This document shows positions 493 through 62,300 of a stretch of DNA of 64,000 bases, piece after piece. Numbering within the stretch: the first letter of the stretch is position 1; each line of letters starts with the position of its first letter. This DNA comes from a virus. Taxonomy: Duplodnaviria > Caudoviricetes. The stretch spans positions 22,008 to 86,007 of IMG/VR virus record IMGVR_UViG_3300047400_000090. One strand, given 5' to 3'. The notes beneath the pieces were generated by a model. The model was not told the DNA's origin. It saw only the letters and a list, made by a program, of their open reading frames with translations, and did not search any database. The position numbers and the translations under genes were made by a program.

Positions 493-1282
493 TTGCAGCT
501 AAAGCCTTCCCTGTTTTCTCGATGGCGGCAAGGTCCGCAAAAGCCTTAGCGAGTTCCGATTGAGTCATGCTAAGTAGCGCCGAAAGTGGCTTTTCGTAGT
601 CGGCTCCAGCCTGTGGCAGGGCAGAGCTATCAGTCTTGCCAAAGTAGGCGCAGTAGAAACGCACAAGGTCTTCTCGACTTACTCCCTTAGCTAGTACAGA
701 GTCCCGCATCTCCTTAACGGTCACTCCAGGACTGGAGTGATTTGGAGCGAGTTGCCCAGAGCCGTTAGTTGGCTGGGGGGGCGCTTTAGGTGCCGCCTTG
801 GGCGCTTGCTTTGCTTGCGTAGTCTGCTGAGGAGGAGTGGAGGCTTTATTGGCATCGTCATCGAGTTCTGAGTAGAGGCTAAACATAGCTCCCAGGCCGT
901 AGCGGCGAGCATAACTAATGGCTGATCCAATGGCCTGTGGCTTGCCGTCTTCGGAGGTAAGGGTAAAGACCGAAGAGAGCCACTGGGAGGAGGCTGCGTG
1001 GAAGACTACGGTCTCTACGGAGATGGTCTTGCCTTCTACTTTGGGAGGCTGCATCATTAGTAACCCAGCCTTAACTAGTGGTGCCTTGATGGCTTCCATA
1101 CAGGCAGCAAGGTCGGCGTAATGGCTCTTAAAGTGTGGATTAAGGGAGTCCTTGGTAGCTGCCTCAATCTCAGTCCAGGCGGCAAGGAAGGCCGGGAGGA
1201 TTTTGTCAATCTTCTCTGAGGTTCGGAGATTGCTAAAGGGGAGCGAGTTAGGCGGTTGGGCCGGGGTAGTTGAGTCTGTCAT
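485..1282 (-). CDS. erf: ERF-family single-strand annealing protein
   Basis: KDSLNPHFKSHYADL and PQAIGSAISYARRYGL...DDDAN are ERF signature motifs; adjacent to the exonuclease. Confidence 0.9.
   Translation of the reverse strand: MTDSTTPAQPPNSLPFSNLRTSEKIDKILPAFLAAWTEIEAATKDSLNPHFKSHYADLAACMEAIKAPLVKAGLLMMQPPKVEGKTISVETVVFHAASSQWLSSVFTLTSEDGKPQAIGSAISYARRYGLGAMFSLYSELDDDANKASTPPQQTTQAKQAPKAAPKAPPQPTNGSGQLAPNHSSPGVTVKEMRDSVLAKGVSREDLVRFYCAYFGKTDSSALPQAGADYEKPLSALLSMTQSELAKAFADLAAIEKTGKALAASA
721..740. promoter_or_regulatory. Copy of the dispersed palindrome (inside erf)
   Basis: TCACTCCAG-GA-CTGGAGTGA, perfect 9-bp arms. Confidence 0.6.
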
Positions 1283-1430
1283 AGGTTATTCCTTCTTTCT
1301 GTGCTTTCAAAATCATTATGTTTTCGTTGACGGGGCCGCTAGGTACTGGCTTGAGAAATGCACGTCCCTTATAGGTTAATGGGTAAACATACACCATGTC
1401 AAGCATTAAATAGAATCGAATGTCTACCAA
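1248..1430 (-). CDS. Micro-ORF, array A, last and possibly degenerate member (IRFYLMLD...)
   Basis: ORF track; ATT-CGA-TTC-TAT-TTA-ATG resembles a mutated M-R-F-Y-L start; overlaps the erf start. Confidence 0.4.
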   Translation of the reverse strand: MVDIRFYLMLDMVYVYPLTYKGRAFLKPVPSGPVNENIMILKAQKEGITYDRLNYPGPTA

Positions 1431-1621
1431 TTGGGTACGCTCCTAAAGTTTTCCAGATGTCGAACTGCCTGTCGATTAAAGGCGCAGTACCCTCCTGCTA
1501 CTATCAGATCAATGGGTCCAGTCCTGAACCTCTCGGAGAATTTGCAGATGCCGAACCGTCCGCCCCAGAAGCTGCTCATGCCGCTCATGTTCTTACCGTT
1601 AAACATCATGAAAATTCTCAT
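1424..1621 (-). CDS. Micro-ORF, array A (MRIFMMFNG..., 65 aa)
   Basis: ATGA overlap with the upstream ORF; shares MMFNG and the 14-bp CCGTTAAACATCAT with 1821-2003. Confidence 0.65.
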   Translation of the reverse strand: MRIFMMFNGKNMSGMSSFWGGRFGICKFSERFRTGPIDLIVAGGYCAFNRQAVRHLENFRSVPNW

Positions 1622-2250: not shown

Positions 2251-2418
2251 TTACCACTTCGCAGCTTCTTCTTTGACTCCTTGAGACAAGTAGAAACGGC
2301 GCACCCCGTGTGCAAATCCTTTTCTGATATCCCAGACCATCCTGTCGTGGCACTTTGTGAAGTTAAGCATTAACTCATGGGGATATTCACAGAACAACAG
2401 GCTCATCCAGCACTTCAT
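2251..2418 (-). CDS. Micro-ORF, array A (MKCWMSLLFC...RRFY..., 55 aa)
   Basis: Translated by hand; its ATG overlaps the TGA of the vWA gene (ATGA). Confidence 0.65.
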   Translation of the reverse strand: MKCWMSLLFCEYPHELMLNFTKCHDRMVWDIRKGFAHGVRRFYLSQGVKEEAAKW

Positions 2419-3557
2419 TCTATCTCTAGCCTCTCTGCCCAGTCGGGGGTAGACTCCTTGGTGGTAATTGCCACAATCACCGGAACCGCAGGCTTAGAAG
2501 GCCAGTCGGTATAACCATCCGTGATGACAATAATCCCGTCTGCCTTCATCTTTAGCGCCGCCTCAATTCCCATGGTCATGCTAGTTCCGCCGCCGCCGAT
2601 GTGCTTCCCCTTGGTGTACCGTGTAACTGCCACATCGCAGTCCAGGATAATCACCGAAGGGAACAGTCGCTTAATTGATGCCAGTACCCCCAGAACCTTG
2701 GCCCCCTCGTTGCCCATTGAACCACTAGTATCGGCAACTGCCACAATCTTAGGGTTGTAGGCGATGAGCGATGGTCGAATGACTTGGTTGGCCTGCTGAC
2801 GACGGTGGAGCTTCCTGTATGAGTAATCCATGCGTCCACGGCAGGCTTCTTTGTGGGCACTAGAGATCCATAGCCGCATCAGTCTCGGCCATGGAGGCGT
2901 CATGTGCTTTAACTCGTCATCAGCCCACACCTCCACCCCAGCAGGTACCGATCCTTTGCCGTTCTTTTGAACGTAATCCTTAACGGCATTGGCGGTAGCC
3001 GTGCGTATGCCGTCCCCACTTACCTCATCGATGCCATCTTCTCCTGCCCCACCTTCCTTCTCGTACTCCTGGCGTGGACCACCAGCGCCGCTGCCGCAGC
3101 CTTTTCCGTTTGGCTGGGTATCTTGCGGCAGGTCGCGGTAGTACTCTTCTGCTGTAAGGTTGTCCGGTTGGCCGATTAGTGAAGGCAAAACAGCGCCATC
3201 TGGCAGCTTGCTTTTGTCGGCATCGTCGTTGATTTCACAGTCCCCGCAGATATTAAATAGATTATGATCACGAGGGCCGCAGCGTTTGTGGTGACGACGT
3301 AGCAGGTGCTCGATTTCGTGGGCAGTAATGACGTAGGCGCGTTTCTCTAGGGACAGGGCAGAGAACCACTCAAAATCGATGTACAGTCGCCAGTAAGGGT
3401 CAACCGCAATGGTTCCTAGGCCATCCACGGCCAGTGGCTTAAGGGGAGCGATGGCTACGGCGTAGTAGGGCCGCATTACCCGCGCTCCCAGGAGGGCCTC
3501 GGTTGCCATGTCTAGTTCGGACTGGGTTGGTTCTCGGTGTTGTAATAGTTGATTCAT
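2415..3557 (-). CDS. Putative metallopeptidase plus vWA domain protein (DUF2201-like), MoxR partner
   Basis: N-terminal HEIEH (HExxH); C-terminal MIDAS DTSGS...GGGT...IVITDGY. Confidence 0.88.
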   Translation of the reverse strand: MNQLLQHREPTQSELDMATEALLGARVMRPYYAVAIAPLKPLAVDGLGTIAVDPYWRLYIDFEWFSALSLEKRAYVITAHEIEHLLRRHHKRCGPRDHNLFNICGDCEINDDADKSKLPDGAVLPSLIGQPDNLTAEEYYRDLPQDTQPNGKGCGSGAGGPRQEYEKEGGAGEDGIDEVSGDGIRTATANAVKDYVQKNGKGSVPAGVEVWADDELKHMTPPWPRLMRLWISSAHKEACRGRMDYSYRKLHRRQQANQVIRPSLIAYNPKIVAVADTSGSMGNEGAKVLGVLASIKRLFPSVIILDCDVAVTRYTKGKHIGGGGTSMTMGIEAALKMKADGIIVITDGYTDWPSKPAVPVIVAITTKESTPDWAERLEIE

Positions 3558-3758
3558 TTCAGTTATACCTTGCCACTGTCCTTGTTGCGAATTTTCCGTC
3601 TACGGCCTTGGATAGCGTAGAATACCGGAAGGCGTTCGTTTGTCATGGCATAGTAATCAATCCCGCACGGCCTCATGTGCCCTTTGTTTGACAACTTGAT
3701 CGCCGAGACAGTTAGTGTTTTATGCCCCTTGCTTGCCTCCCGGCTAGTGAAAGACAGG

Positions 3759-4781
3759 CTAATAAGCCATGATGCGATCACCGAGTCTCTTACCCTCGTC
3801 TGGAACATCGCCAGTGGACTCAATCAGGACGTGCGCCGCCGTAATAACCAAGTCGGGCCGCTGCGCATCTAGGATCTTCCACGCCTTCTTAATCCGCAAA
3901 TCCCGCTCAGGGTGCTCTGCTAAGGCAGCCACAACCATCGAGGAGATAGTAACGCTAGCCTGATCGCCACGGGATGGAATTTTAGCGATCCCAGCCAGCA
4001 CTTCCTCAGGGTCCGGCAGGTCGAGCGATTTCTCCCAAGTATGCCACTGTTGTGCCGCCGCATCCCCAACCACTGATCCAACCAAGGCGTAACGATCTTG
4101 ATCGGCAAAGCCATGAGCACGGGATAGCAGCCGAATAGCCGCAGTCCATGAGCGAGGGGAAGGCCATGCCCGTGATGCCGCATCGCCCTTTGGTGGCGAG
4201 AGCAGTGCCGCAGGACTATGTTGAATCCAGCCGGTAATGCTAGTAGTAGCCGCTTGTTCTGCCTTGGTCTTGGGAGCTACTCCCCAGCCTCGTAGCGTGC
4301 CAGCGATCCAATTCTTGGCTTCTACGGTAAACTCAACGTGTGCCCACCGATTAGCAGTAGAGGCAGCCAAATAACCACCATCTGCCGCTGTTTCGGCGGG
4401 ATTAGCCGCAGCTACAACACGGCAGCCTGAGATATCACAGTCTCCAACCTTCCGCTCTTGCACCACACGAAGAAGCGCAGCCTGTACCGCAGGAGGGGCG
4501 CAGGATAACTCGTCCAGGAATAGCCAAGCCTGCTGACCACGCTGAAGCGCCTCTCGGATGCGTACTGCCCATGGCGGAGCCGAAGACTTGACGTTACCCT
4601 TGGCGTCCAGGGCGTTAAATCCGCCAACATCAATGGGGTCCATAGTAGAGCCAATAAGGGTCTCCATGTGGGCATTATCTTCCCGCGCTACGGCCTTAAT
4701 GCTTTCGGTCTTGCCGGTGCCAGGGGCACCCCACAGAAGCAGCGGGATATCCGACAATAGGTACACTCTGAGATTCTTCAT
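3759..4781 (-). CDS. MoxR-type AAA+ ATPase
   Basis: Walker A GAPGTGKT, Walker B LFLDEL, AANP, NRW and WPSPRSW. Confidence 0.9.
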   Translation of the reverse strand: MKNLRVYLLSDIPLLLWGAPGTGKTESIKAVAREDNAHMETLIGSTMDPIDVGGFNALDAKGNVKSSAPPWAVRIREALQRGQQAWLFLDELSCAPPAVQAALLRVVQERKVGDCDISGCRVVAAANPAETAADGGYLAASTANRWAHVEFTVEAKNWIAGTLRGWGVAPKTKAEQAATTSITGWIQHSPAALLSPPKGDAASRAWPSPRSWTAAIRLLSRAHGFADQDRYALVGSVVGDAAAQQWHTWEKSLDLPDPEEVLAGIAKIPSRGDQASVTISSMVVAALAEHPERDLRIKKAWKILDAQRPDLVITAAHVLIESTGDVPDEGKRLGDRIMAY

Positions 4782-5971: not shown

Positions 5972-6087
5972 TTTGCGACTATCCGCTCCACTATGAGGCT
6001 AATTACCACGCTCCACGCTACTACAATCAGCGCCAGTACAACCAGCACGATAAGGACGGATGCCCAGTACTTCGCATCTCTCTTCAT
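5968..6087 (-). CDS. Small single-pass membrane protein (39 aa)
   Basis: Translated by hand: MKRDAKYWASVLIVLVVLALIVVAWSVVISLIVERIVAK; ATGA overlaps on both sides. Confidence 0.6.
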   Translation of the reverse strand: MKRDAKYWASVLIVLVVLALIVVAWSVVISLIVERIVAK

Positions 6088-6287
6088 CTCATTCTCTCCC
6101 CCGCAAAGGTGTGCAGCCTGCGTACCGCCTCGTCATCCTCGATGTCGCCGTTCACTAGGTCAACCATAAACTCCGATAGCCAGCGAGTCTTTAGGCCGAT
6201 AACGGGGCTGCTGACCATTACCGAGAAGAACTCGTAGATCTCCCTGGAGCTACGCGCCCTCTTGTGAGTAGAGAATGGCTTAGTCAT
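6084..6287 (-). CDS. Hypothetical protein
   Basis: ORF track; tightly packed in the operon. Confidence 0.6.
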   Translation of the reverse strand: MTKPFSTHKRARSSREIYEFFSVMVSSPVIGLKTRWLSEFMVDLVNGDIEDDEAVRRLHTFAGERMR

Positions 6288-6290: not shown

Positions 6291-6458
6291 TTACTCGAAG
6301 TCTGGTCCGTTCCGCAGTACGGAGATCCCCTTCTCGATTAGGATCTTGTACATGGCCGAGGTGGTAATGTTTCGCATCAGCGCCATGATCTTGACCTCTC
6401 GGTGCAGGTCTCCCAGGTCTAGGGATAGTTGTGTCTTCTTTGGTTCGTTCTCAGTCAT
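6291..6458 (-). CDS. Putative ribbon-helix-helix DNA-binding protein (55 aa)
   Basis: Translated by hand: KKTQLSLDLGDLHREVKIMALMRNITTSAMYKILIEKGI shows an alternating beta strand followed by two helices (Arc/CopG pattern). Confidence 0.5.
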   Translation of the reverse strand: MTENEPKKTQLSLDLGDLHREVKIMALMRNITTSAMYKILIEKGISVLRNGPDFE

Positions 6459-7607: not shown

Positions 7608-8009
7608 TTACTTGATCCTCTCTTCTACGAAATTCTGGTATTTCTTTGTCTCATTTCCGTGGCTGGCAGGTGCGTGTAGCGCCACAATCTGTCTAACTGT
7701 CAATCCATCCGCCAGTCGCCGCGCTATTAGCCGGTGTAGGGCCATCCAGCCGTCTTCTGGCGTCTTGCACTTGGCATACCCGGCACTGCCGCGTTTACAC
7801 CCAGGCTGCCCCTTGTAGAGTAGTGCGCCAGGATTGTTGTACCGCTGTGCCATGGTTCCGGGTTTATTGTACCCCTCGTAGTCTGCCATGGCAAGGCTTA
7901 CTTTGTAGGCCGTCCGCTCGAACTCCAGCACTGGAGTGATTGGAGCCTCTAGAGTGGCTGGGCCAATGGCCAGGATGGTTAGGTTCGCTATTACCGTAGG
8001 TAGGTTCAT
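7608..8009 (-). CDS. Lysozyme-like protein with hydrophobic N-terminus
   Basis: EG...RYNNPGAL...GYAKCKTPEDGWMAL...TVRQIVALHAP...NETKKY matches the pattern of NNPGNL-type lysozyme-fold phage proteins. Confidence 0.6.
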   Translation of the reverse strand: MNLPTVIANLTILAIGPATLEAPITPVLEFERTAYKVSLAMADYEGYNKPGTMAQRYNNPGALLYKGQPGCKRGSAGYAKCKTPEDGWMALHRLIARRLADGLTVRQIVALHAPASHGNETKKYQNFVEERIK

Positions 8010-12980: not shown

Positions 12981-13286
12981 ATCCCATCTCCTTTGATTGT
13001 AATAACTTAGCTAATAACGCTTACTCAAGCCTAATGGTAGCTTACGAGATCGGCGAAAGCTAACCCATAACGCCTACTACAGGGCAAGTGTTATTAACTA
13101 AACTCATTAGAATCAATAGCCTAGACTGGTAAAGCTAAGCTGAAGCTAGAAGTTTAGTTCTGGACTAATTACTGAGTGCTAGGTACAGTAGTACCACGGC
13201 TAGGGCAAGTAGTCCAGTATCGCGTAAGGCTTCGCGTAGTCGCCGTCGCCGGTCGATCCGCCGGTATAGTTCGCGTAGGTCGTGGT

Positions 13287-48977: not shown

Positions 48978-49003
48978 GCCGTAGATTAGGAAGGAGATAA
49001 CTC

Positions 49004-49462: not shown

Positions 49463-49477
49463 GAGTTGTGAGTGAGA

Positions 49478-49493
49478 AGTCCAGTACTGGACT
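49478..49493. promoter_or_regulatory. Perfect 16-bp palindrome copy
   Basis: AGTCCAGTACTGGACT, intergenic. Confidence 0.7.
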
Positions 49494-49498
49494 AGATT

Positions 49499-49532
49499 TA
49501 GGGAGTCTGGAGTGTCTAGGCTCCCTATTTTT
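49499..49532 (+). terminator. Intrinsic terminator
   Basis: AGGGAGTCTGGA/TCTAGGCTCCCT stem (with G-U pairs) followed by ATTTTT. Confidence 0.65.
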
Positions 49533-49546
49533 ATTAAGGAGGAAAG

Positions 49547-50710: not shown

Positions 50711-50718
50711 GGAGAGAA

Positions 50719-50946
50719 ATGAGTCAATTTTCAGATTTTAAAAGTAAGATGGCAACGCCGGAACTTGGCGTCTCTGACCCGATTTTTAATCAGGCCAGAA
50801 CCCGCGATACCCCCAGTCAGGACTCCAGCAACCCGCCTATGATGGCTTATGAGGCAAGGTGGCAGTACATGGATCACTTGGCTAAGGGTATGAGCAATTT
50901 CGACATGAAGAGTGATCGAGATAGGCCGGGGTTGTTTAAGGAGTAA
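50719..50946 (+). CDS. Hypothetical protein
   Basis: ORF track; SD upstream. Confidence 0.6.
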   Translation: MSQFSDFKSKMATPELGVSDPIFNQARTRDTPSQDSSNPPMMAYEARWQYMDHLAKGMSNFDMKSDRDRPGLFKE

Positions 50947-50948
50947 TC

Positions 50949-51602
50949 TTGGCTCACATTGATCTTGCTAGCCTAAAGGCGTTGGTCTACGCTCGGCTGG
51001 AGGGGAACACCTCAATGTACTCCGACTCCGAGATAACCTGGGCTATCAATGAAGCAATTTCGTGCGGTAATCTCATTTGCGGCTGGTCTCAGGATACCTA
51101 CCGCATTACCGGCGGAAGCGTGCCTGGACGCCACATCTATGACGTCCCTGAGGGGATTATCTTCCCCATTAGGGTCTGCTTCATGGATGAGGTCCTGGAG
51201 AAGGGGTCCCTGTCTTCGGGGATTTCGCTGCTACCTGAGTTAATGAGAGACACTACCGCCAGCACGGGAAAGCCGGTCTCAAGGTGGTTTCCAATTGGGA
51301 TTACTAAGTTTGCCATCCATCCAGCAGATTCAGTTGGCGGTGGAGCAATTACCGTTACAGGGATTACGGAATTCCCCAAGTTGACGGCTAGTACGGATGA
51401 TACACAGATGCCCAAGGAGTCGATTACGGCGGTGTGTGATTATGCGGCCCATATCGTTCAGTGCAAAATGCAAGGGGCTCAGTTGGCGCAGTCGTACTCA
51501 TTTTTCCAGAATTGGCAGAATTTAACAAAACTCGATAAGTATTGGCAGACCTTTAGTCAGCCCAACTACTACTTCGATGAACAAAATTTAGTAAGAGGAT
51601 AA
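50949..51602 (+). CDS. Head-tail adaptor-like protein
   Basis: L...V.ARL.....YSD.EI..AINEA, a connector-type N-terminus. Confidence 0.6.
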   Translation: MAHIDLASLKALVYARLEGNTSMYSDSEITWAINEAISCGNLICGWSQDTYRITGGSVPGRHIYDVPEGIIFPIRVCFMDEVLEKGSLSSGISLLPELMRDTTASTGKPVSRWFPIGITKFAIHPADSVGGGAITVTGITEFPKLTASTDDTQMPKESITAVCDYAAHIVQCKMQGAQLAQSYSFFQNWQNLTKLDKYWQTFSQPNYYFDEQNLVRG

Positions 51603-51604
51603 CA

Positions 51605-51832
51605 ATGAAGTTCAGCTTTAATGTCAACGCAATGATTCAGTGCCTAGCGACGGCGCTACAATTCGCCAACATGGCCAATGACCTACCACTGCCACCCAAG
51701 GCAAAGGGTTATGTCACCGTGGCCATTGGAGTTATTCAGAGCATTTCCGGGTTGCTGGCGCACTTCAAGAACCCGGATGGGAGTTCAGCTAAGGAGCCAT
51801 GGTCTACGGGAACTACTCCTACGGCACAGTAG
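51605..51832 (+). CDS. Holin-like small membrane protein
   Basis: Two hydrophobic helices ending in NPDG...W. Confidence 0.5.
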   Translation: MKFSFNVNAMIQCLATALQFANMANDLPLPPKAKGYVTVAIGVIQSISGLLAHFKNPDGSSAKEPWSTGTTPTAQ

Positions 51833-52695
51833 CCTACGGAGGCGAACTAGAGGAGTCGATTTCGGCACAGCCTGCTATGCCAATCTCTGTACGGGATATC
51901 TATAATCAGGTCTGCGACTCTATCCTAGAGCCCGGTGGCCTCACAGGGGAAACCCTGTCTGACGATGACTTCCTAGTGTTTCTTAATGACTCACTCAGGG
52001 ATATCCTTGAGGCGTCAAACTGCTTTATCAAGCTACAAAACCTTGTAACATCAACAGGAACAAGGGTTTATACACACCCCTACTACATCAATCAGACCGT
52101 TGGGATGCTCTGCGATGACGCCAGCTTGTTCCGATCCTCGGGTAGTTACTGGGACAATGGGGACTACTTATGGCAGTCTTGGCCATCCTCGGCCCCTGAA
52201 GAGTGGCGCGATGATGAGCTTCCAGAAGACTCAGTAGAGGTTAGACCGGCCCCTCAGTGGATCGGATATACCCCGACCTATAGTGCAGGCTTCTATGGGA
52301 CGTTTAGTTCGTGCTCGGCGGTAAATACCTTCCAAATCGCCTATGCCGCCAATATGTACGGAACCATCCAAGACGGCAATTACGGAGATGTTTATACCGA
52401 GTTCACGGCCCCGATGTACGGCACCATGGCAAGCATCGTTGACTCTTCCTTAAATCTTACAGAGTTTGATACCTACACCCAGGAGAGCGCTATTGACTCC
52501 CTGGATGACTATGTTCAGGACTTACCGGTTAGCTTTGGGCCTTACCTGAAGTTTGGAGTCTTGGCTAGGGCTTATTCCATGGACGGTGAACTGAAAAATA
52601 TGGCACTGGCAAAGTACTACAAGAGCCGCATGCAAGAGCTTTTCCGTCTCCTAAGATCAGTTACTGGAGAGGCATTACTTGAGGTGGTACAATAA
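51799..52695 (+). CDS. Head-tail adaptor-like protein
   Basis: FLVFLND...Y.HP...; LKFGVLARAYSMDGE...AKYY. Confidence 0.55.
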   Translation: MVYGNYSYGTVAYGGELEESISAQPAMPISVRDIYNQVCDSILEPGGLTGETLSDDDFLVFLNDSLRDILEASNCFIKLQNLVTSTGTRVYTHPYYINQTVGMLCDDASLFRSSGSYWDNGDYLWQSWPSSAPEEWRDDELPEDSVEVRPAPQWIGYTPTYSAGFYGTFSSCSAVNTFQIAYAANMYGTIQDGNYGDVYTEFTAPMYGTMASIVDSSLNLTEFDTYTQESAIDSLDDYVQDLPVSFGPYLKFGVLARAYSMDGELKNMALAKYYKSRMQELFRLLRSVTGEALLEVVQ

Positions 52696-52704
52696 GTTAG
52701 AGAT

Positions 52705-52956
52705 ATGCCATCCTCAGTAACAATCACTCCGCGTAAAATCTTCCTAGAGGACCTCCAGGTCTCCACGGCTTATAGCCCCACGCTCTCGGCCCAGACCGTA
52801 GGTGGTGTTGGAACGGTCTCGCTTACGCCTATCAATGCCGTTCTCTTCTCATCCTTCCCTTCTTATGCTAGCCGAGCGGCTGCTACTGCAGCCCTGGGTG
52901 GGGGAAGAATCTACTTTGATTCGACTCTTGGGACTCTTGGCGTAACTACTGGCTAA
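52705..52956 (+). CDS. Hypothetical virion protein
   Basis: ORF track. Confidence 0.55.
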   Translation: MPSSVTITPRKIFLEDLQVSTAYSPTLSAQTVGGVGTVSLTPINAVLFSSFPSYASRAAATAALGGGRIYFDSTLGTLGVTTG

Positions 52957-53138
52957 TGACCCAGGATGAGTCACTTGACGAGCTTGTCGAGGCAATCCTA
53001 GAGATTGTAGGCCGCGACCCAGCAGGGGAAGCCAGACTAAGAGCGGTAATTGACTCACTGAAAAAGAAGCGTAATCCCAGGGAGGGATGGTCTAACTTCG
53101 AGGTAATTGAAATTCCTCCTCTTCCCAAGGCGGGTTGA
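52956..53138 (+). CDS. Hypothetical protein
   Basis: TAATG coupling. Confidence 0.55.
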   Translation: MTQDESLDELVEAILEIVGRDPAGEARLRAVIDSLKKKRNPREGWSNFEVIEIPPLPKAG

Positions 53139-53163
53139 CTTTAGTCCAGTACTGGAGTAAACT
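53135..53163 (+). promoter_or_regulatory. sigma70-type promoter whose spacer is the palindrome
   Basis: TTGACT-ttagtccagtactggag (17 bp)-TAAACT. Confidence 0.7.
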
Positions 53164-53200
53164 AAAATCATAGCAGACAGGTAAGGTTTGGACCGCTATA

Positions 53201-53230
53201 TAAAGCCTACTCTTAACGGGGTAGGCTTTA
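53201..53230. terminator. Perfect 10-bp hairpin, possibly a bidirectional terminator or attenuator
   Basis: TAAAGCCTAC-10 nt-GTAGGCTTTA. Confidence 0.55.
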
Positions 53231-53269
53231 TTCCTTCTATAACCCGCAACTCATTGATAAAATGGGATT

Positions 53270-56200
53270 ATGGCGGATTCCACGGTTACACGTCTACCCA
53301 TGTCCAATAAGGGCATGGTCCAAAAATTAGACTTAAACCAACTCTCTGATGGGCAATACGCCTACCTTCTCAACACTGTCTCTGAACAAGAGGGTGCCCT
53401 CTCCCCGCGTTACGGCTATACCGACATCTCCATTACCTCCTGGGGTCCAGCTAGGGTCGATTCTCTCTTTGTTTCCAACCCAGTAACAGCGACTGATGCC
53501 TATAAGCCGAACGTCTATGTTGGCGAATCCAGCAACATCCGCCGAGTAGCAGTCTCAAATACCCCCTCTACCTCCCCAGCAGGGACCTCTACAACCATCT
53601 CTACGGGTGGCATTGGAGTAACTGGATCAGGTGCCCAGGCGCGAAGAATTGGAATTACCCAGTACGCTACCGATCAGTATAACAATGTCGGGACTACGTA
53701 CATGGCTACCGGATACAACTTTAATGGTAGCGGTGGGGACGCGGGTAGAACCTTTAGGGGCGTCTTAAGGGATAATGGCTCCTACTCTGTGGCTAGGACG
53801 GTTGGGATTCTGCCTCCGGTTGTACCGGCCTTTGCTACCCCTGCAGCGCCACAGGTTAAGACCTTTGGTACGGTCTCTAGCAACACTAGGGTAAACACTA
53901 CCACCTCTACGGCTATTCCGACCCCGACTCAGTCGGTTCTATCTGACTATTACCAAGTGCAGGTCGGTACTGTGGGCGTGCCAACTAAGTCTTACCTCAA
54001 TGGCATCCAAGAGGGGATGTACATTACCGTAGGAACAGGTGGAACCACCTCGGCAGGACAGCTTCAGGGTCCGGTTGGCGGAATTGATCAAGACAACTCG
54101 ATCTTCTACCTAGGTGGACATGGCGTAACCCCGTCTATTGCGGCAGGATCTACCGTAGTAGCTTATACCACCGAGAGCGCCAATGTGGCTGTGCCTGCTG
54201 TTGGAACAGCACTGGTTTATGCCTACCCTTTCCCTAATTCTGGGGGAACGGCAGATTTTAGCCTAACTGGCGTCTATCAGAACGGGTATGACTCTAACGA
54301 TACTGTTCACGTCTCTTTCTATAACGGAACCCCATCAAATATTCAGAGCGTAGAGCTTAGGATTTTCTGTGGCAGCAGTAATGGCTACTACAGTTACATG
54401 ATCAACCTAGACAGCGCTCTGGGGGCAAGTGGAGCGTACTGGCTAGAGCAAGACATCATTAAGTCGGCCTTTACCAAGAACGGCGTAGGATCTGGCAATA
54501 ACTCCTGGATCAACGTCACAGCGGCACAACTTGTAATTACCCCGGTCGATACCTCGGTTGGTTTCACGATTAACGCCGGTCAGTTATTTGCCTGGGGTCA
54601 TGGCGGCCTAGACTCCGGGTCGGATCCCAAGTTACAGCCCTACGACTACGTCTATACTTATAGGGATCCAGAGACCGGAGCAGAGAGCAATCCTTCCCCT
54701 CTAATGAACGCCGATAAGGCAATAACTGTATCGAATCAGGGAGTTAGGGTAACCTTCTTTGGTACGGACAATGGCACCTTTAGCACTAATTGTTCCTCCA
54801 ACGCCGGAGTAACCCAGGTAGCCATCTACCGAAGGGGTGGATCCTTTACCGATGGAGCATTTAGGCGAGTAGGGCTAGCTACAAATCCAGGAATTAGCGG
54901 AACTTCGCTTAATAATGATTTCTTTATTGATACCGTTGACGACCTATCTATCACTAACGCGGTACAAGCCAAATTCGACAATGATGCCCCGGTAACCGTC
55001 TCTATCGGCAAAGAGTACGTAGGCTCCATTAACTCAGGAACTGCCGTTGGAAATACCCCTATTACTATCACCCCTACAGTCTCTGGAGTTTCTGACCTAA
55101 CGACGGTTTTGACCCCAGGGACGCAGGTAATTATTGGGAATGGTGTATCCTCCTCCACGGCTGGTGGCTCAGAGAATCAGGAGATCGTAACAGTCTGGAA
55201 TATTACCGCTACCACCTTTGACTGTTACCTGAGTTATGTTCATGCCGCCAATGAGCAAGTCTCTTGGAGCACCAATGCTGGATTGGCTGGTGATCAGGTC
55301 TTGGCGGCCATGGACTGCCTATGGATGGCAGGTGTTGCCAAGGCTCCGCACATGCTCTGGAGATCCAAGACAGGGCAGCCTGAGGCATGGCCCACTATCA
55401 ACGAATCGACCGGAAATGCCCATGTGGTTCAAATTTCTACCCCGGATAACCCCATTATGGGGCTGGCGGAGTTCAATGGTGAAATTGTAGCCCTGTGCCA
55501 ACATGGTATCTACACGGTTAGGCTCGATAATGGACGCATGGTTGGTCCATTCAAGACTCCTGCCAATCGCGGATTAGTCCAGAAGTATGCCTGGACCTAC
55601 GTCGATAACGAAATCTGGTTCCTGTCCTACGATGGTATTTATGCCTGGGCAGGCGGCTCTGTCCGCAAGGTTAGCTTAGCTATTGACTTTGTCTTCAATC
55701 AGAGAGTCGTTAATGGAGTAACTCCGCTGAATCAAAACTACACGGGCACTGGGTCTTCCTCGATCTATCCGGCCCTGGTCAGTCTAGTTCAAAAAGGGAA
55801 TGAGGTCTACTTTGCTGGCAATTTCTGGCAGCCAGGGACTACCACTACGGCGTTTTACCTATTTAGGTACAATATCTTATTTGACCGCTGGAGCGTGGAT
55901 GAGGTCTATGACGCATCGGCCACTCTGTCTACCACTAGAAACGGCGTAACACTGTATCCTACTTCGGTTACCTGCCTAGCCTCCAATAAGGCCACTGGTG
56001 ATATTATTGCCGCCAAGTCTTCCTATACCGGAACGACGGTAGCTGGACTGATCTACTACAATAACGTCGGCACCTACAGCGACGGGACCGGGGCTCATGC
56101 GATCTACTACGATGTCATTAGCAAGTGCTATGACATGGGAGCGGCGCTAGTTAAGAAGAAATTTACCGACATTGGCGTAGAGTTTACCTCAGGGGCCGTT

Positions 56201-59200
56201 ACTTCGACTACCCCAGGGAAGACTACAAACACCTTCGTTTCTCAGCTTTACTACGACTACTCCTCCACGGCTGACTCTACTGACGTCTTTAACTTCACTC
56301 CTGGATCCACGGGCCGCCAGACAGTCTCACTGCCGCTTCAGCAGACAGGTAGTCCCCTAACCTCTGCTGGCAAAGAGGCAAGGGCTGTACAATTTGAGTT
56401 CTATGGCACCTCCACGGCTGCCAACTTTATCCATGGTCTATCGTTCAATACCATCGCCCTACAGGACATCATCAAGGGCCGCGTAACCGACTGGAGCGAC
56501 CTTGGGCACCCCTATGATAAGCGCCTGAGTACGGTAACCATTGAGTATGACAATAGCATCAGCGGCACCCCCACGGCCTGTGACATCCTCTTGGACACCG
56601 TCTCGGGGATAGCAGGAGGTACGCAAACCCTAGCAACTCAAACACTTACGCTTCCTGCGGCAACTGGAAGATCTAAGATTACCCTGCCTATCAATGACGG
56701 AACCATTGCCAAGATGGTCAGACTGCGCCCGAAGGTAGCAAGTGCCGTCTATGAGATTTTCGACTTTAAGTTCGTACAGGATAACTACCCTCCCGACAAG
56801 GTCTACTTTACTGACTTCAAGGATGAGGGCTATGAGTACGAGAAGCGCCTGTACGCGCTGTACATTAACTGCGATACTAACAATCAGAACGTCCGAGTAG
56901 ATGTCTGGGGTGATGGCGGGATTTTACAGACCGTCACCGTTACCGGGACGGCTGATAACAGGATGCAGGCTATTCCCCTGAATCCTGACCTGATTGCCAA
57001 GCTAATTAGGCTTAACGCCAACGCTTCTGATGTCAACGCCACGAACTCAAAATTCCAGTTATTTGACTATCGGTTCGACTACGAGAAGTTGCCAAAACCT
57101 ACAATTTACTCCACTCCCTGGAGTGATTTTGGGTACGATTACCTCAAGGATGCAGAGCAAATTGCCTTCGACGTGAACACTAATGGGCAGACTGTTCCTG
57201 TGCAGGTGTACTGCGATGGAACGCTGAATCAGACTGTCAATGTCAACACCACTCACGCTACCAGAAACATCAACATAACCCTCAATCCGGCCATTCAGTT
57301 CAAGACCATGAGGCTGAAAATTGACCCCACGGCCATTCCTGTAGGTGGTCGCTTCCAACTATGGGACTACACCCCCATCTTCGTACAGGCCGACAAAGGG
57401 GCCGTTAAGCACACCTTCGACTGGGATGATCTGGGTCACCCCTACGACAAGAAAATCTCGGAAGTAACTATTGAGTTCGAGACCGGGCACGATAGCGGTG
57501 ATACCGCCATTCAGCTTGCTATAGATACCCTTAGTGGCATTGATGGAAACACCCCGTCTCTGGCCGCACAAACACTGACCCTGCCGAACACTAGCGGAGT
57601 CCGTGGCAAGAAGACCTTCCCTCTTACGGAGACAGTCTGTAAGATGATTAGAATCAGGTCTTTAGGCAACTCTGGCGGAGGGACCCAGAGTAATAGCTTT
57701 AAGATGTGGGGGTATGAGTTTAGCAATACCGTAAAGTATCCCCAAGATAAGGTCTACTTTACTGACTACTCCGACCAGGGGTATGAGTATGAAAAACGGT
57801 TATACCAACTGTATATCAACTGCGATACCGCAGGCAATAACGTAAGGGTTGATATCGTTGGGGATAACTCTGTCCTCCAGACCGTTACCGTTAACGGCAC
57901 TGCCGCTAATCGGATGCAGTCTTTTGCCATGAATCCTGACTTAGTGGCTAGGCTGATCAGGCTGAACACGAACACTACGGACGTCAACGCTACTGGGGCA
58001 AAGTTCCAGTTATTTGACTATCACTTTGACTATGAAAAGTTACCCAAGCCAACAGTTCTTTCTACGGAGTGGACTGACTTTGGGTATGACTACACGAAGT
58101 ACGCCGAGCAAATTACGTTCGATGTTAACACCAATGGCCAGACCGTACCTGTGCAAATTTGGGGTGATGGCAGCCTTAAACAAACGGTAAATATCACCTC
58201 CACCCAGGCGACGAGATCGGTAAATATCACTCTAAACCCCGGGATTACCTTCCAGATGATGCGCCTACAGGTCGATCCAACGGCCATCCCCTCTGGTGGT
58301 AGATTCCAACTCTGGGAGTACAAGGCAATCTTCCGTCCAGTAGACAAAGGGGCAGTTTATCATACCTTCGACTGGGATGACCTAGGACACCCTTATGACA
58401 AGAAGATCTCTGAGATCACCATTGAGTTTGAAACAGGTCACGACACCAATGACACTAACGTCCAGGTTGCTATTGACACCCTAACTGGGATTGATGGAAA
58501 TACCAGGACATTAGCCGCCCAGACGCTTACCTTGCCTAATAGCTCAGGCGGCAGGGGACAGAAGACCTTCCCATTGACTGAGACGGTCTGCAAGATGGTC
58601 AGGGTTAGATCCCTAGGGCAAAACGGGGCCGGGACGCAGAGCCCTGACTTCAAGATGTGGGGGTATAAATTTGGCAATACTATCCCCTATCCGGCTGATA
58701 CTTCTAAGTTTACAGAGTGGACTAACGCCAATAGTGCCTGTGCCAAGATCTTTAGGGGAGTAGGTATCCAAATCGATACAGGTGGAGTAGACTGTACGGT
58801 TGGCCTTGAGGTCGATGGCACACAAGTCCAGACCTGGACTGTCAATACCTCTACCTCTACTCGTCAGACCTTTGAGACTCCTGTCAATGCCACCGAAATT
58901 AATGGCTACCTCTTTAGGCTTACCTTTACCCCAGGGACGGGAGGAAAGGCTCAGTTATTCGGCCAGCCCGAGTGGAATCTCGTAAGGGACGCCTGTGACT
59001 TTGTCATCTTTGATACCTACAACCAGGGGTACGGTTCAGTTGGGTATAGTATTATCAAGCAGTTATGGGTGGACTACAAGTGTGCCGGAACTATCACCGT
59101 TAGCATCTACCGGGAGGATGGAACATTCTTCTACTCCACTGTTCTGCCAGTTCATCCAACCAGGGAGACTGAGCGGTTCTATGTCCCATCGGTCTATAAC

Positions 59201-59374
59201 GGAGTAAAGAATAAGGACAAGAAGCACAGAATCGTCTTAACGGCCAATGACCCGACTAAGAAGTTCCGGCTTTATAGAGACTGTTCTAGGACGTGCTACA
59301 TTAACCTATCCAAGGATCAGAGGCAGGATGCTGACTCGTTTATTATTTGGGAGAACCTAGTTGTACAGGTCTAG
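53270..59374 (+). CDS. Large tail (nozzle/stabilisation-like) protein, 2034 aa
   Basis: Podovirus tail-type segments (YVYTY.D..G.ES.PSP; LWRSKTGQPEAWP; AWTYVDNEIWFLSYDGIY); internal tandem repeat. Confidence 0.7.
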   Translation: MADSTVTRLPMSNKGMVQKLDLNQLSDGQYAYLLNTVSEQEGALSPRYGYTDISITSWGPARVDSLFVSNPVTATDAYKPNVYVGESSNIRRVAVSNTPSTSPAGTSTTISTGGIGVTGSGAQARRIGITQYATDQYNNVGTTYMATGYNFNGSGGDAGRTFRGVLRDNGSYSVARTVGILPPVVPAFATPAAPQVKTFGTVSSNTRVNTTTSTAIPTPTQSVLSDYYQVQVGTVGVPTKSYLNGIQEGMYITVGTGGTTSAGQLQGPVGGIDQDNSIFYLGGHGVTPSIAAGSTVVAYTTESANVAVPAVGTALVYAYPFPNSGGTADFSLTGVYQNGYDSNDTVHVSFYNGTPSNIQSVELRIFCGSSNGYYSYMINLDSALGASGAYWLEQDIIKSAFTKNGVGSGNNSWINVTAAQLVITPVDTSVGFTINAGQLFAWGHGGLDSGSDPKLQPYDYVYTYRDPETGAESNPSPLMNADKAITVSNQGVRVTFFGTDNGTFSTNCSSNAGVTQVAIYRRGGSFTDGAFRRVGLATNPGISGTSLNNDFFIDTVDDLSITNAVQAKFDNDAPVTVSIGKEYVGSINSGTAVGNTPITITPTVSGVSDLTTVLTPGTQVIIGNGVSSSTAGGSENQEIVTVWNITATTFDCYLSYVHAANEQVSWSTNAGLAGDQVLAAMDCLWMAGVAKAPHMLWRSKTGQPEAWPTINESTGNAHVVQISTPDNPIMGLAEFNGEIVALCQHGIYTVRLDNGRMVGPFKTPANRGLVQKYAWTYVDNEIWFLSYDGIYAWAGGSVRKVSLAIDFVFNQRVVNGVTPLNQNYTGTGSSSIYPALVSLVQKGNEVYFAGNFWQPGTTTTAFYLFRYNILFDRWSVDEVYDASATLSTTRNGVTLYPTSVTCLASNKATGDIIAAKSSYTGTTVAGLIYYNNVGTYSDGTGAHAIYYDVISKCYDMGAALVKKKFTDIGVEFTSGAVTSTTPGKTTNTFVSQLYYDYSSTADSTDVFNFTPGSTGRQTVSLPLQQTGSPLTSAGKEARAVQFEFYGTSTAANFIHGLSFNTIALQDIIKGRVTDWSDLGHPYDKRLSTVTIEYDNSISGTPTACDILLDTVSGIAGGTQTLATQTLTLPAATGRSKITLPINDGTIAKMVRLRPKVASAVYEIFDFKFVQDNYPPDKVYFTDFKDEGYEYEKRLYALYINCDTNNQNVRVDVWGDGGILQTVTVTGTADNRMQAIPLNPDLIAKLIRLNANASDVNATNSKFQLFDYRFDYEKLPKPTIYSTPWSDFGYDYLKDAEQIAFDVNTNGQTVPVQVYCDGTLNQTVNVNTTHATRNINITLNPAIQFKTMRLKIDPTAIPVGGRFQLWDYTPIFVQADKGAVKHTFDWDDLGHPYDKKISEVTIEFETGHDSGDTAIQLAIDTLSGIDGNTPSLAAQTLTLPNTSGVRGKKTFPLTETVCKMIRIRSLGNSGGGTQSNSFKMWGYEFSNTVKYPQDKVYFTDYSDQGYEYEKRLYQLYINCDTAGNNVRVDIVGDNSVLQTVTVNGTAANRMQSFAMNPDLVARLIRLNTNTTDVNATGAKFQLFDYHFDYEKLPKPTVLSTEWTDFGYDYTKYAEQITFDVNTNGQTVPVQIWGDGSLKQTVNITSTQATRSVNITLNPGITFQMMRLQVDPTAIPSGGRFQLWEYKAIFRPVDKGAVYHTFDWDDLGHPYDKKISEITIEFETGHDTNDTNVQVAIDTLTGIDGNTRTLAAQTLTLPNSSGGRGQKTFPLTETVCKMVRVRSLGQNGAGTQSPDFKMWGYKFGNTIPYPADTSKFTEWTNANSACAKIFRGVGIQIDTGGVDCTVGLEVDGTQVQTWTVNTSTSTRQTFETPVNATEINGYLFRLTFTPGTGGKAQLFGQPEWNLVRDACDFVIFDTYNQGYGSVGYSIIKQLWVDYKCAGTITVSIYREDGTFFYSTVLPVHPTRETERFYVPSVYNGVKNKDKKHRIVLTANDPTKKFRLYRDCSRTCYINLSKDQRQDADSFIIWENLVVQV
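56786..58687 (+). repeat. Direct tandem duplication, period 951 bp (317 aa), inside the tail gene
   Basis: YPPDKVYFTD starts at 56786, YPQDKVYFTD at 57737 and YPADT at 58688; the two units are highly similar throughout. Confidence 0.9.
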
Positions 59375-59376
59375 AC

Positions 59377-62300
59377 ATGAAGACTAATTCACAAGAACCA
59401 GATACTCGTATGAAGGTCCTCTCTTCGGACCTCGGCGACCCTGACCTGTATCGCCTAAATCAGATCATTAACGATCTGTACTCCAGGGTCTCCTCTAAGA
59501 CAGGAACTACTACTAACACCACCGTACAGCAGATCATCAACTCTACCTCTGGAAACAGGGGTGGAGGAGGCGGAGGGGGGGCCAGTACAGTCAGGGTTCA
59601 GTACGCACCTACTACTGACTTCCTGGGAGCAATGGATCGCCAACTAAATGAAAAGATTGGAGAAAGTATCTCTGTTCTGGATTTCGGGGCAGTGGGGGAT
59701 GGCACAACGGACTGCTCTGCAGCATTTAACGCTGCGGTTACTGCGGCATCTACATCTACGATTGCAAGGACGATCTACATCCCGGCGTGCAAGTCGTTCT
59801 ATAAAATGGGGTCTACGGTTACAATTAACTCCTCGGTCCCGATCAGTTTTGTAGGAGAAGGGGTTGGTTCGCTAGTTAAGTTAACAGGAACGCTTGCTAC
59901 CTATAAGGGTCTTTTTGACGTTAAGAGCGACAATGTAACCTTCTATAACTTCTGCATCGACGGAGGAACTACCACGGCGGCTAAAGGTGGATACAACGAG
60001 GCCACGCACGTAGGGGACTTCAATAATGACCCTATGCACTCGTTCCTGACGCTAAACACGTCTGTTTGGGTTCATGGTCCAGTAAAGAACACCACTTTTG
60101 CCAAGATGACCTTCCAGCACGCTGCTGGGTATTCCATCTTAATTGACGCAACCAACGGTACGCCATCCGGGGGGACCAATAGTGGGGTTTACGATACTGG
60201 CGTTTATGACATCTATAACACCAAGATCATCGGGTGCGATTTCCTAAACAACAGACCGACCATCTTTGGTAACTGGAATCATACAGACTGCAATTACGGA
60301 TCTTGGAATGGTGGAATCTTCCTAAATACCTACGGAATTGCTGGAGGTGGTGCCTATTTATCAACGACCTACGGAACACTTGTGCAGGGGTGCGAGTTTA
60401 GAGGGAATTATGGAAACTGTGTCTGGAGTCATCTTTATAACTTTGATATTCTGCACAATGATTTAAGGGTTATTGGCAACACTTTTATTGATAACGGATT
60501 AGACTGCATTCTTTTTGGTGGCGTCGTTGGCGGAGCAGCCATCGGGAATTCTATGCGAAGGACCGGCTATATACCGCCAGATCGAACCATAGACATTGGA
60601 CCAACCAACATTCCAATACCCCGCTGGGCAAGGATTATAACACAAGACAGCCCCAGGGTGTACACTAACAAGAATGCAACAGCCCTTGACACTTCAGGTA
60701 TATGTAAAGGTGTAACCTACTCGGACAATTCAATGATGTCCACTAATGGTGGAGACATTGATGCTGATGGATTTTGCGATGGTACCATTTCTGGTAATAT
60801 CTGCATTACTCCGAGAAGCTCAGGACAGAATGGGACGGCAGACCCAGAGTACGCAAAAGACCAAATTAGCATTTCTGGGCCGTCCAATGATGGATCGACA
60901 TGGTCTTACGGTGTTAATGCCAATAATACCTATGGCGGCATCTTTGGTTCAAGAAACATCAACATCTCTGGCAACTCCTTCATAAATAAGGACGGAGGAG
61001 CTATCCTTTTAGGAGGCTCCCAGAACTCAACCGTCTCCAGCAATAACGTGGTTCACTATCTCAGGTCGGACGGAAGCGGTCCAGGATCTGGACCAATAAC
61101 CCTGTATAATATCACGGACGGATTCGGCACTAAGCGAACAGTAAAAAACAATACCGTAATTGGGAATACTATCGCCTGGATAAGCCTAAATTACCAATGG
61201 TGCGCCATCACCGAGGATGGAGCCGACCTGGGGGCCCCTGCTTTCGATTCTGGCGATAAGAACTGGATCCACGGAAATCAGTTACTAAGTCCTTACCTAA
61301 CAGAGTTTTACAAGGATTCTGGATCAAGTTCCACAACTGGGATTACGCTATCCCTAACCCAGAATGATCTAACGGCTAAATCAGACTCGCTTTTGACTCG
61401 CTATAGGTCAACCTCTAACTCGGTTAACTTCGACTATTTGTCGTTTTATGGGTCAACTTACTCCAGTACTGGACTAAAAGCCTTCCTATCCGACAATGCC
61501 AAACTCCAGTACGTTGGCTGGTGCTCTACGGCGACTACCAACGTAACTTGGCAGTCTGGAGACGACTTCTCGTCATTTTCTAACGGTGGGTCAATTGTAA
61601 TCAATGGCGTAACCTACACGATCTCCACCAAGACCGACTCTACACACCTAGTTCTTTCGTCTAGCGCCGGAACCCAGGCATCGGTAGCCTTCTCTAACCC
61701 CCTGCTATACCAAGGGGAGTCGATGTTTAATGTCTGCGCCTCCACCAAGGGATCCATCACCACGGGCGGCAGGACACTGCTATCTTATGACGACGTTATA
61801 GCTACAGGCAGTCTTCAGGGTGATGCCATGTTTGCCTTGACAGATAGCACCTATAGCGCCCAGAACGCCAATAAGTACGCCGATACCACTGGGCTCTTTA
61901 GGTACGATTCCAGCGCCAAGGCTTTCAAGTACTCCACCTCAGTTACCTCTGGGGTCAGGAACTGGACAACACTAAGCAGTTCCTTCACGGCTGGATCTGA
62001 CAAGCAACTGATTTTCAACAATAGCGGAACCCTGACCGGGGATGCTAATTTGTTATGGTATTACGGCTCTTCCCCAGAGATTCTCTACCTTGGAAATAGT
62101 GCCTACCTACAGACTACAGGCGGAGTTCTTTCTCAGTCTAATAACTATGCCGCACTTAATGCTTGGCAGCCCACAGCCAACATCGGCGGAGGTGCGCTTC
62201 TTTCTGGGATTGGTATAGGTCCAACGTATTACCAAGGAACGGTAAATACCGTAGGAACCGCCGTTACCTGGGCATCTGGGGCGACATTTACCTCGGCGCT

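Follow-up and report, generated by a model that had tools for sequence, protein, structure and literature searches.

The stretch of phage DNA analysed here raises the question why one palindrome, with the 12-bp core TCCAGNNCTGGA (TCCAG-NN-CTGGA), is scattered along it within genes as well as between them, and what kind of molecule reads it. The phage, G000, is an uncultured freshwater phage represented by the IMG/VR contig IMGVR_UViG_3300047400_000090, which comprises 86,007 bp and is estimated to be 85% complete. The window, i.e. the whole stretch of 64,000 nucleotides under analysis, corresponds to bases 22008-86007 of this contig; positions are those of the window, and positions marked "genome" are whole-contig coordinates. 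For comparison we used three long contigs of a sister clade, G001-G003, with lengths of 94-103 kb; among the four genomes, two are 96-100% complete. An earlier reading of the same DNA without database searches (the sequence-only reading) had described the palindrome as an operator- or stoperator-like network of at least 13 copies. The distinctive point of the present analysis is that the motif is wholly rewritten between sister lineages, together with the loss of a ParB-type DNA-binding region.

Abundance and symmetry of the palindrome

In the window, the 16-mer ASTCCAGNNCTGGAST is present in 12 exact copies, for which 100 dinucleotide shuffles gave an expectation of 0.00, and the core occurs 14 times (0.03 expected). 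Over the whole contig the numbers rise to 15 exact 16-mers and 19 exact cores. That the feature exists is confirmed, with high significance. A symmetric position-weight scan revealed a clear score gap that sets about 20 strong sites above background, and it added near-copies at genome 446 and at window positions 13151, 42451 and 62354. The network of at least 13 copies thus stands and is stronger than had been claimed. The sequence-only reading had proposed counts against a shuffled genome and in the rest of the phage; both were run, the first giving an enrichment far above dinucleotide shuffles and the second the 19 cores of the 86-kb contig. Its coordinates were right within 0-5 nt and the copies that it listed were recovered, but two had escaped it, an exact one at 58825 and one with a single mismatch at 28272.

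The full consensus of the sites reads AAAT[C/T]A[C/G]TCCAG-NN-CTGGA[C/G]T[A/G]ATTT, with AAAT[C/T]A[C/G]TCCAG as the half-site, the conserved flanks stretching the site to 24-26 bp. Two arm forms are preferred, namely ATCACTCCAG (12 arms) and TTTAGTCCAG (about nine arms). The centre dinucleotide varies, as had been noted before, with TA in nine sites, GA/TC in seven, CA in three and AC in one. In the leftmost 30 kb, sites mostly consist of two ATCAC arms around a GA/TC centre, while those farther right mostly combine a TTTAG arm and an ATCAC arm with a TA centre. Lone half-sites are not clearly over-represented, their number being near expectation, which indicates that the paired arrangement is what is selected. 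The half-sites pointed out earlier at 16719 and 21212 therefore carry no weight, and the one at 13160 is not a lone half, as it belongs to a weak full site at 13151.

At the C/G position, the two arms vary independently of each other, and nine of the 15 exact 16-mers are non-complementary there. Mean folding energies amount to -7.1 kcal/mol for the sense and -7.6 kcal/mol for the antisense strand, leaving the transcribed strand without advantage, and mixed-arm sites viewed in transcript orientation split about 5:4 or 6:3 with no consistent bias. Intragenic copies are found in frames 0, 1 and 2 and encode different peptides. Since the arms are independent, all frames are used and the sense strand gains nothing in folding, we regard the sites as DNA-level targets of a dimer and not as hairpins. 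The earlier preference for a dimeric protein site over an RNA hairpin is supported by the same three lines of evidence.

Origin of the copies and a different palindrome in the sister clade

The site inside terL illustrates how a copy can arise. At this place the relatives have AAG ACN CCN ACC GGN ACN (KTPTGT), whereas G000 has AAG TCC AGT ACT GGA GTT (KSSTGV); about 6-7 substitutions, three of them amino-acid changing, and no indel were needed to build the site. Compared with three relatives, the sites in a gene of 2034 amino acids (aa) and in a 181-aa gene are likewise free of indels, so that sites have been built in place by multiple substitutions, partly with amino-acid changes, and not inserted. 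A mobile insertion resembling a miniature inverted-repeat transposable element (MITE) was rejected, as no indel marks the sites in these three genes. The sites are under selection at the DNA level, and this selection is so strong that it prevails over the protein sequence of the large terminase.

The TCCAG-N2-CTGGA family is absent from G001-G003. The sister clade has a 17-bp palindrome of its own, W-ACTG-[A/C]-A-[A/G]-N3-[C/T]-T-[G/T]-CAGT-W (ACTG-N9-CAGT), with 10 copies in G001, 19 in G002 and 22 in G003, where 1.2-1.5 would be expected and none of 200 triplet shuffles gave more than 5-6. A single copy of ACTG-N9-CAGT is present in G000. Matches to the G000 motif in other viral contigs were single ones only, consistent with chance, and those in metagenome contigs were single and chance-like as well, none of these contigs being related to G000.

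Through protein alignments the sister-clade sites could be placed onto G000 at 11 mappable locations. For five to six of these, a G000 site is no farther away than about 200 nt (binomial P ~0.0025), an overlap that could be inflated by the slight leaning of both site sets to gene boundaries. The locations concerned are:

Erf gene: sister site inside the gene, 66-69 nt from the orthologous position of the G000 site
Gene at genome 277-735: sister site 89 nt from the weak G000 site at genome 446
Start of the 2034-aa gene: sister site about 200 nt from the position equivalent to the G000 site at 53143
dUTPase gene: sister site 134-176 nt upstream of the gene, G000 counterpart at 34949
148-aa gene: sister site in the orthologue of G002 and G003, G000 counterpart at 37064
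C-terminal repeats of the 2034-aa gene: sister site with ambiguous mapping

A lineage-private motif with roughly kept placement is the pattern expected from a binding protein and its sites co-evolving.

Genome context and placement of the sites

No cultured phage is close to G000 (capsid identity below 30%). Six related contigs encode capsid proteins with 74-78% identity to that of G000 and 87-99% among themselves. Transcription is leftward in the left part of the window, which contains replication and recombination genes and a large accessory block; from about 25.4 kb onwards, genes run rightward. G000 also encodes DnaB, a two-gene DnaG primase, SSB and an RNA ligase, and two giant tail-region genes (2034 aa and 1499 aa) are located at the window's right end. 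The following genes serve as landmarks:

485-1282, minus strand: Erf gene
2415-4781, leftward block: MoxR/vWA pair
25397-25756, plus strand: 119-aa gene, the first rightward gene
27642-28310, plus strand: amidase gene
34970 (start), plus strand: dUTPase gene
39763, rightward part: terL
42902, rightward part: portal gene
47498, rightward part: major capsid gene
49547, rightward part: SU10-type adaptor gene

The individual sites, including the weak ones, are distributed as follows:

Genome 446: weak near-copy, within the gene at genome 277-735
Genome 9532: palindrome copy inside a gene for a 457-aa winged-helix protein
723-738: site ACTCCAGGACTGGAGT with extended arms, inside the Erf gene
7922-7937: site inside a 133-aa gene (7608-8009, minus strand), about 1.5 kb upstream of a pair of 55-aa and 67-aa genes in the same leftward run
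13151-13166: weak site with two mismatches and a good right arm, dividing the only 11-kb gap between strong sites
19086-19101: intergenic site between a 635-aa gene and a phosphoesterase gene
23443-23458: 5'-leader site, with TTGACA-17-TATACT about 27 nt upstream and the ATG of the gene at 23162-23434 (minus strand) 8 nt farther on
25739-25754: site overlapping the stop codon of the 119-aa gene
28272-28287: site with one outer mismatch, at the 3' end of the amidase gene
34949-34964: top-scoring site, exactly between a TAA stop codon and the ATG of the dUTPase gene
37064-37079: site with one core mismatch, inside the 148-aa gene (36856-37302)
40742-40757: site inside terL
42451-42466: site with an exact core, outer mismatches and a weak right flank, near the 3' end of the 181-aa gene (41982-42527)
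45265-45280: site located 5 nt ahead of the ATG of the SLOG/YspA gene (44807-45259, minus strand); TTGACA-17-TATGAT precedes it by 147 nt
49478-49493: intergenic site that follows a stop codon and precedes a rho-independent terminator (49499-49527 plus T-run)
53143-53158: intergenic site filling the spacer of TTGACT-17-TAAACT (53135-53163), upstream of the 2034-aa tail-region gene
58825-58840: site inside the 2034-aa gene, in a conserved stretch without indel
61460-61475: site inside the 1499-aa gene
62354-62369: weak site, good left arm only

At about one site per 4 kb, the sites are spaced more evenly than random placement would give (the gaps have a coefficient of variation of 0.56, versus 0.96 expected, P=0.004), and the smallest gap between sites is as large as 1464 nt (P=0.0004). 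About 8 of the 20 sites are intergenic in a genome that is approximately 90% coding, an estimate from crude calls of open reading frames (ORFs), and 11-12 sites are intragenic. Gene boundaries in G000 are only weakly enriched in sites (P=0.04), and in the relatives such an enrichment does not reach significance. Of the strong sigma70-like promoters, four are intergenic and on the correct strand, and three of these are followed by a site 27-147 nt downstream (binomial P ~2e-4):

Genome 12121: promoter TTGACA-17-TATAAT with a site downstream, at genome 12061
23478: promoter TTGACA-17-TATACT with a site downstream
45420: promoter TTGACA-17-TATGAT with a site downstream

Moreover, three sites end 5-8 nt ahead of a start codon and two are preceded by a stop codon and followed, a few bases to about 50 nt downstream, by a separate intrinsic terminator. 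The positions emphasised by the sequence-only reading proved correct in this respect: three copies abut the start codons at 23434, 34970 and 45259, one fills the promoter spacer of TTGACT-17-TAAACT, and intragenic copies are found in Erf, terL and the two giant tail-region genes. A link between the sites and transcription units is supported.

Some of these loci have features of their own. The SLOG/YspA-like gene (150 aa) and an endonuclease VII gene (116 aa) constitute a reversed block on the minus strand (44807-45775) between the portal and head genes, which is equipped with its own strong promoter, the TTGACA-17-TATGAT element mentioned above; in the relatives, the SLOG homologue is located elsewhere and a homologue of the endonuclease VII was not found. 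At the promoter-spacer site, a second terminator hairpin at about 53200-53235 was read by eye, the terminator scan having listed the hairpin at 49499-49527 but not this one. With a terminator within about 50 nt, TTGACT-17-TAAACT could yield a very short transcript or act as an attenuator before the 2034-aa gene.

G000 is present in aquatic/freshwater metagenomes of 2015, 2021 and 2025 from five studies, and parts of it in four metatranscriptome runs; public runs were compared as assembled contigs, on window positions 40000-59999. Near-identical sequence (99-100% of sampled words) was detected in metagenomes of 2015 and 2025, and a strain diverged by about 5% in a run of 2021. The metatranscriptome contigs mainly cover the capsid region (46.5-49.5 kb), and one of them spans the site at 49478 and the terminator that follows it.

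Candidates for the binding protein

Adjoining Erf, G001-G003 each encode a protein of 315-327 aa with an HTH_ParB domain above the Pfam cut-off:

G001, contig C1, 4467-5414 (L011): ParB/KorB-like gene
G002, contig C1, 769-1704: ParB/KorB-like gene
G003, contig C1, 96721-97476: ParB/KorB-like gene

Among PDB sequences, this protein matches ParB, Spo0J, Noc and KorB over the N-terminal and helix-turn-helix (HTH) domains. GFGRYEA replaces the GERRxRA box, and a long acidic/lysine-rich linker is followed by a helical C-terminal domain. About 0.9 kb upstream of the gene, one ACTG-N9-CAGT copy is present in all three sister genomes. As to a ParA partner, none of the four genomes gave an AAA_31 match above cut-off; a Phage_integrase match was not obtained in any of them either. 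By inference only, the partner-less ParB/KorB-like protein would be the obvious candidate for binding the 17-bp palindrome of its clade.

In G000, neither ParB_N nor HTH_ParB was found in six frames. Two small ORFs deserve attention:

6084-6287, minus strand: 67-aa ORF that aligns to the last 57 residues of the sister ParB/KorB-like protein (40% identity, E 2e-9)
6291-6458, minus strand: 55-aa ORF directly upstream of the 67-aa ORF, with TAA-ccc-ATG between them

The 67-aa ORF belongs to the same leftward block as Erf, some 5 kb upstream of that gene, and its alignment makes it likely to be a remnant or partner of the binding-protein gene; longer homologues of it were not found. Its 55-aa neighbour is a speculative candidate for the DNA binder. 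The AlphaFold model of the 55-aa protein is a single long helix, a fold search remained without matches, and the only hint comes from language-model neighbours in Arc/HicB-type clusters (0.93). The identical 55-aa protein is encoded on 38 public contigs, the longest of which has 96,954 bp, and a 76%-identical homologue of 64 aa occurs in ENA data. As the 96,954-bp contig encodes the identical protein, a more complete public copy of the G000 genome exists.

No XRE-type HTH (HTH_3) and no MarR were found in G000. Its only clear winged-helix protein is the one of 457 aa (genome 9093-10466, minus strand), which resembles phage Rep-O/HTH_36 initiators and has no homologue among 1.8 billion representative proteins except for a 153-aa entry that is 97% identical to its own N-terminus. 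Within its gene, at genome 9988-10098, there are five tandem 22-bp iterons (CGTGTTGAATTGACCACGGTN) encoding a repeated TVVNSTR peptide. As an orphan with its own tandem iterons, the protein is more likely a lambda-O-type replication initiator, and the iterons look like a lambda-O-style replication origin inside the initiator gene. We also discarded a 135-aa plus-strand ORF beside Erf (1358-1765), which looks spurious: it overlaps minus-strand micro-ORFs and is unlike the small rightward gene of the sister clade.

A methyltransferase was not found in the 86 kb of G000. Those of the relatives are:

G001, contig C1, 17840-18817: C5 type
G002, contig C1, 19759-20022: N6/N4 type
G003, contig C1, 78937-79221: N6/N4 type

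About 26 kb of the window (1358-27600; 23.3-49.6 kb of G000) gave no tblastn match with E <= 1e-4 in G001-G003, except for one short match at 15632-15943. This block starts exactly at the position of the ParB-like gene of the sister clade and holds MoxR/vWA, DUF932, DUF7227, DUF7448, a phosphoesterase, the 635-aa orphan and arrays of micro-ORFs.

Proposed function and alternative explanations

In our judgement, the palindromes are probably docking or operator-type sites on double-stranded DNA for a sequence-specific dimeric protein. This protein would bind as a dimer or a dimer of dimers, each subunit reading T-Y-A-S-T-C-C-A-G, and it would act genome-wide. Where a site separates a strong host-type promoter from the first start codon, as three sites do, the protein may serve as a roadblock or repressor. 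The many intragenic sites may form a distributed docking or loading lattice similar to that of KorB at the OB sites of plasmid RK2, and the purpose of such a lattice could be silencing over long distances or the organisation of the genome. In the sister clade, the ParB/KorB-like protein without ParA partner would be the likely binder. Because the ParB DNA-binding part is absent from G000 and the motif is rewritten, the binder of G000 should be a different protein; its gene may be next to that of the surviving 67-aa C-terminal homologue, or in the approximately 11-15 kb missing from the contig.

A more far-reaching and clearly tentative proposal, which we consider rather doubtful in its full extent, is that a clade of freshwater phages of about 90-100 kb, in which no integrase was found, depends on a genome-wide lattice of about 20 sites. 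After loss of the ParB DNA-binding part in one lineage, a new binder would have taken over and every site would have been rewritten from ACTG-N9-CAGT to TCCAG-N2-CTGGA, even in terL, with the neighbourhoods being kept. Lytic phages would then possess a plasmid-style system for clamp loading, silencing or organising.

As to the earlier functional claims, the stoperator reading is not supported in its strict sense: the sites are palindromic and unoriented, no integrase was found in the four genomes and no repressor in G000. Control of early, array, replication and structural genes by a single regulator stays conjectural, and the scans assigned no binding protein. The alternative of a role in DNA organisation or segregation gains weight from the partner-less ParB/KorB-like gene of the sister clade.

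Several observations weigh against the docking-site explanation. It is from one contrast only, that between two lineages, that ParB and the motif are linked. When about 130 G000 ORFs were scanned with Pfam and PHROG, no classical regulator was found, and no DNA-binding protein could be assigned as the binder. A ribbon-helix-helix fold for the 55-aa ORF found no support, there being no Pfam or PDB match and no profile similarity to P22 Arc/Mnt, and the 457-aa winged-helix protein is unlikely to be the binder, its own 22-bp iterons being its probable target. In the sister clade, almost all sites are intragenic without any between-gene enrichment, and their spacing is not significantly even. Of 15 G003 sites that could be aligned, only six have stayed intact in G001, and conservation between these two genomes is overall no higher in the sites than in their flanks (78% versus 75%, P=0.28). 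As sister-clade sites turn over in this manner, individual sites are dispensable and a role in transcription start is unlikely for most of them. The system looks redundant, depending on site density and not on individually essential operators.

The failure to find a phage-encoded binder in G000 would also be compatible with sites for a protein of the host, for instance a nucleoid protein or global transcription factor, that the phage exploits, the lineages then differing in their host or host factor. Roughly kept placement with a replaced motif fits this equally well, and there is a precedent for phage use of a host regulator in the CtrA sites of Alphaproteobacteria phages (PMC9437464). We nevertheless consider a host protein unlikely. 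When the extended site was sought in one genome per prokaryote species, 11 single matches in unrelated genomes were obtained, approximately what chance would give by our estimate, with no genome enriched; an amino-acid-costing site in terL and even spacing would be unusual for borrowed transcription-factor sites. To our knowledge, the G000 motif matches no operator consensus. Less probable again is a role as recombination sites, be it as repeats or as targets of a site-specific enzyme, in inversion, deletion or module exchange. It is true that contigs from freshwater DNA of 2025 have 255-nt loose ends at 45260 and 53141 whose sequence equals that flanking the sites at 23443 (reverse strand) and 19086, respectively. 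However, these are exactly the two site pairs with the longest identical runs (23 and 20 nt), so that the loose ends probably stem from contigs of the other locus that align here only in part, and none of the contigs could be followed into the second flank. At several intergenic sites the neighbouring genes are unique to the G000 lineage, and G000 encodes Erf and two endonuclease VII/HNH-like proteins; the sites in conserved genes, on the other hand, arose by point substitution and not at rearrangement borders. In Cluster O mycobacteriophages, two deletions have been attributed to recombination between 17-bp repeats (PMC4351075), yet recombination between repeats could be a mere side effect of having them.

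Hairpins of RNA or single-stranded DNA, acting as terminators, processing or stabilising signals or ribosome-binding-site switches, would account for the five sites with perfect stems of 7-12 bp (about -10 to -15.5 kcal/mol), for the flanks being A-rich on one side and T-rich on the other, and for the arm CTGGAGTGATT, which contains GGAG at ribosome-binding distance from the ATG at 45259. We regard this as very unlikely, since 11 of the 20 sites are mismatched at stem position 6 by a G.G or C.C clash and fold with only -3 to -8 kcal/mol. Of the two RNA orientations, the weaker occurs more often, the energies of sense and antisense strands are similar, copies lie mid-gene in terL, Erf and other genes, and two sites are followed by true terminators that are separate hairpins. 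Intrinsic terminators or elements resembling repetitive extragenic palindromes (REP) are thus a poor match for this set, given the stem mismatches, the missing sense bias and the 11-12 intragenic copies. The idea we credit least, to the point of hardly expecting it at all, is that of a target for restriction-modification or DNA modification, or of a by-product of biased repair. The invariant 5+5 core with its free 2-bp centre does resemble an enzyme recognition site, and relatives encode DNA methyltransferases. Phages, however, normally deplete restriction and modification sites and do not enrich them; no methyltransferase was detected in the 86 kb of G000, and G001 (C5 type) shares one motif with G002 and G003 (N6/N4 type) despite the differing methyltransferases. 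The conserved extent of 24-26 bp and the even spacing would be left unexplained.

Comparison with known systems

The temperate Streptomyces phage phiC31 has 17-bp conserved inverted repeats (CIRs) at many loci, often at gene ends, which are bound by the c repressor. The G000 sites are similar to these CIRs in being inverted repeats at many genome loci, and differ in that phiC31 is temperate with a known binding protein. The stoperators of Cluster A mycobacteriophages (L5, Bxb1) are 13-bp asymmetric sites, mostly in one orientation to transcription, that are bound by the monomeric immunity repressor of a temperate phage (PMC6550527, PMC9283540). They resemble the present network in number (20-36 genome-wide sites), in their location inside and between genes and far from promoters, and in a motif that tracks the lineage; sites downstream of promoters could block elongation in G000 as well. 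The G000 sites, however, are symmetric palindromes of 16-26 bp without orientation. Signs of a temperate phage were not seen, with no Phage_integrase in G000-G003, no HTH_3 and no ParA, G000 being 85% complete. On the grounds of symmetry, orientation and lifestyle, this is not a stoperator system in the strict sense. A parABS system of the plasmid or prophage type does not apply either, as ParA is lacking in all four genomes.

Dispersed symmetric repeats in phages without lysogeny genes have already been published for the Cluster O mycobacteriophages. Their 17-bp dyad repeat, TGTTCGG-N3-CCGAACA, occurs in 34 copies in Corndog, about one third of them inside genes, and the authors predicted a dimeric binding protein without naming it and argued for a process other than transcription initiation (PMC4351075). 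The descriptive features agree with those found here: inverted arms around a variable centre, tens of copies genome-wide inside and between genes (about one third to one half intragenic), no orientation to transcription, and a phage that has no lysogeny genes and is not obviously temperate. A protein with a ParB-like domain is encoded there, as it is in the sister clade of G000. The sequences are non-homologous, though, and a siphovirus of Mycobacterium is compared with a freshwater phage that has podovirus-like adaptor genes; moreover, in the present case a sister lineage has another palindrome with partly kept placement, and the ParB-type DNA-binding region has been lost in G000. The present case contributes a natural experiment: the palindromes of the two sister lineages are wholly unlike in sequence but similar in number and partly in location, and only one of the lineages has a ParB/KorB-like protein. 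It provides concrete pairs for in-vitro work, i.e. the ParB-like protein with ACTG-N9-CAGT and the small ORFs of G000 with TCCAG-N2-CTGGA.

On the IncP plasmid RK2, KorB is a ParB-family clamp that loads at dispersed OB palindromes and slides or silences over up to 1.5 kb, so that no site close to the promoter is required (PMC11790492). Both systems have from about a dozen to two dozen palindromes over a mobile genome of 60-100 kb, some near promoters and some far from them. The dispersed copies that characterise KorB-OB and Noc-NBS networks are found in G000 (about 20 in 86 kb) and in the sister clade (10-22); a ParB-family protein of their own is encoded by G001-G003, for which it is KorB-like and without ParA, but not by G000, a phage and not a plasmid, in which only the C-terminal homologue was detected and no ParB N-terminal or HTH domain. 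By analogy, KorB-OB is best read as the mechanistic model for the G000 network, and the Cluster O repeat as its nearest published parallel. If the function is long-range silencing or genome organisation, KorB-type biology would extend from plasmids to virulent phages.

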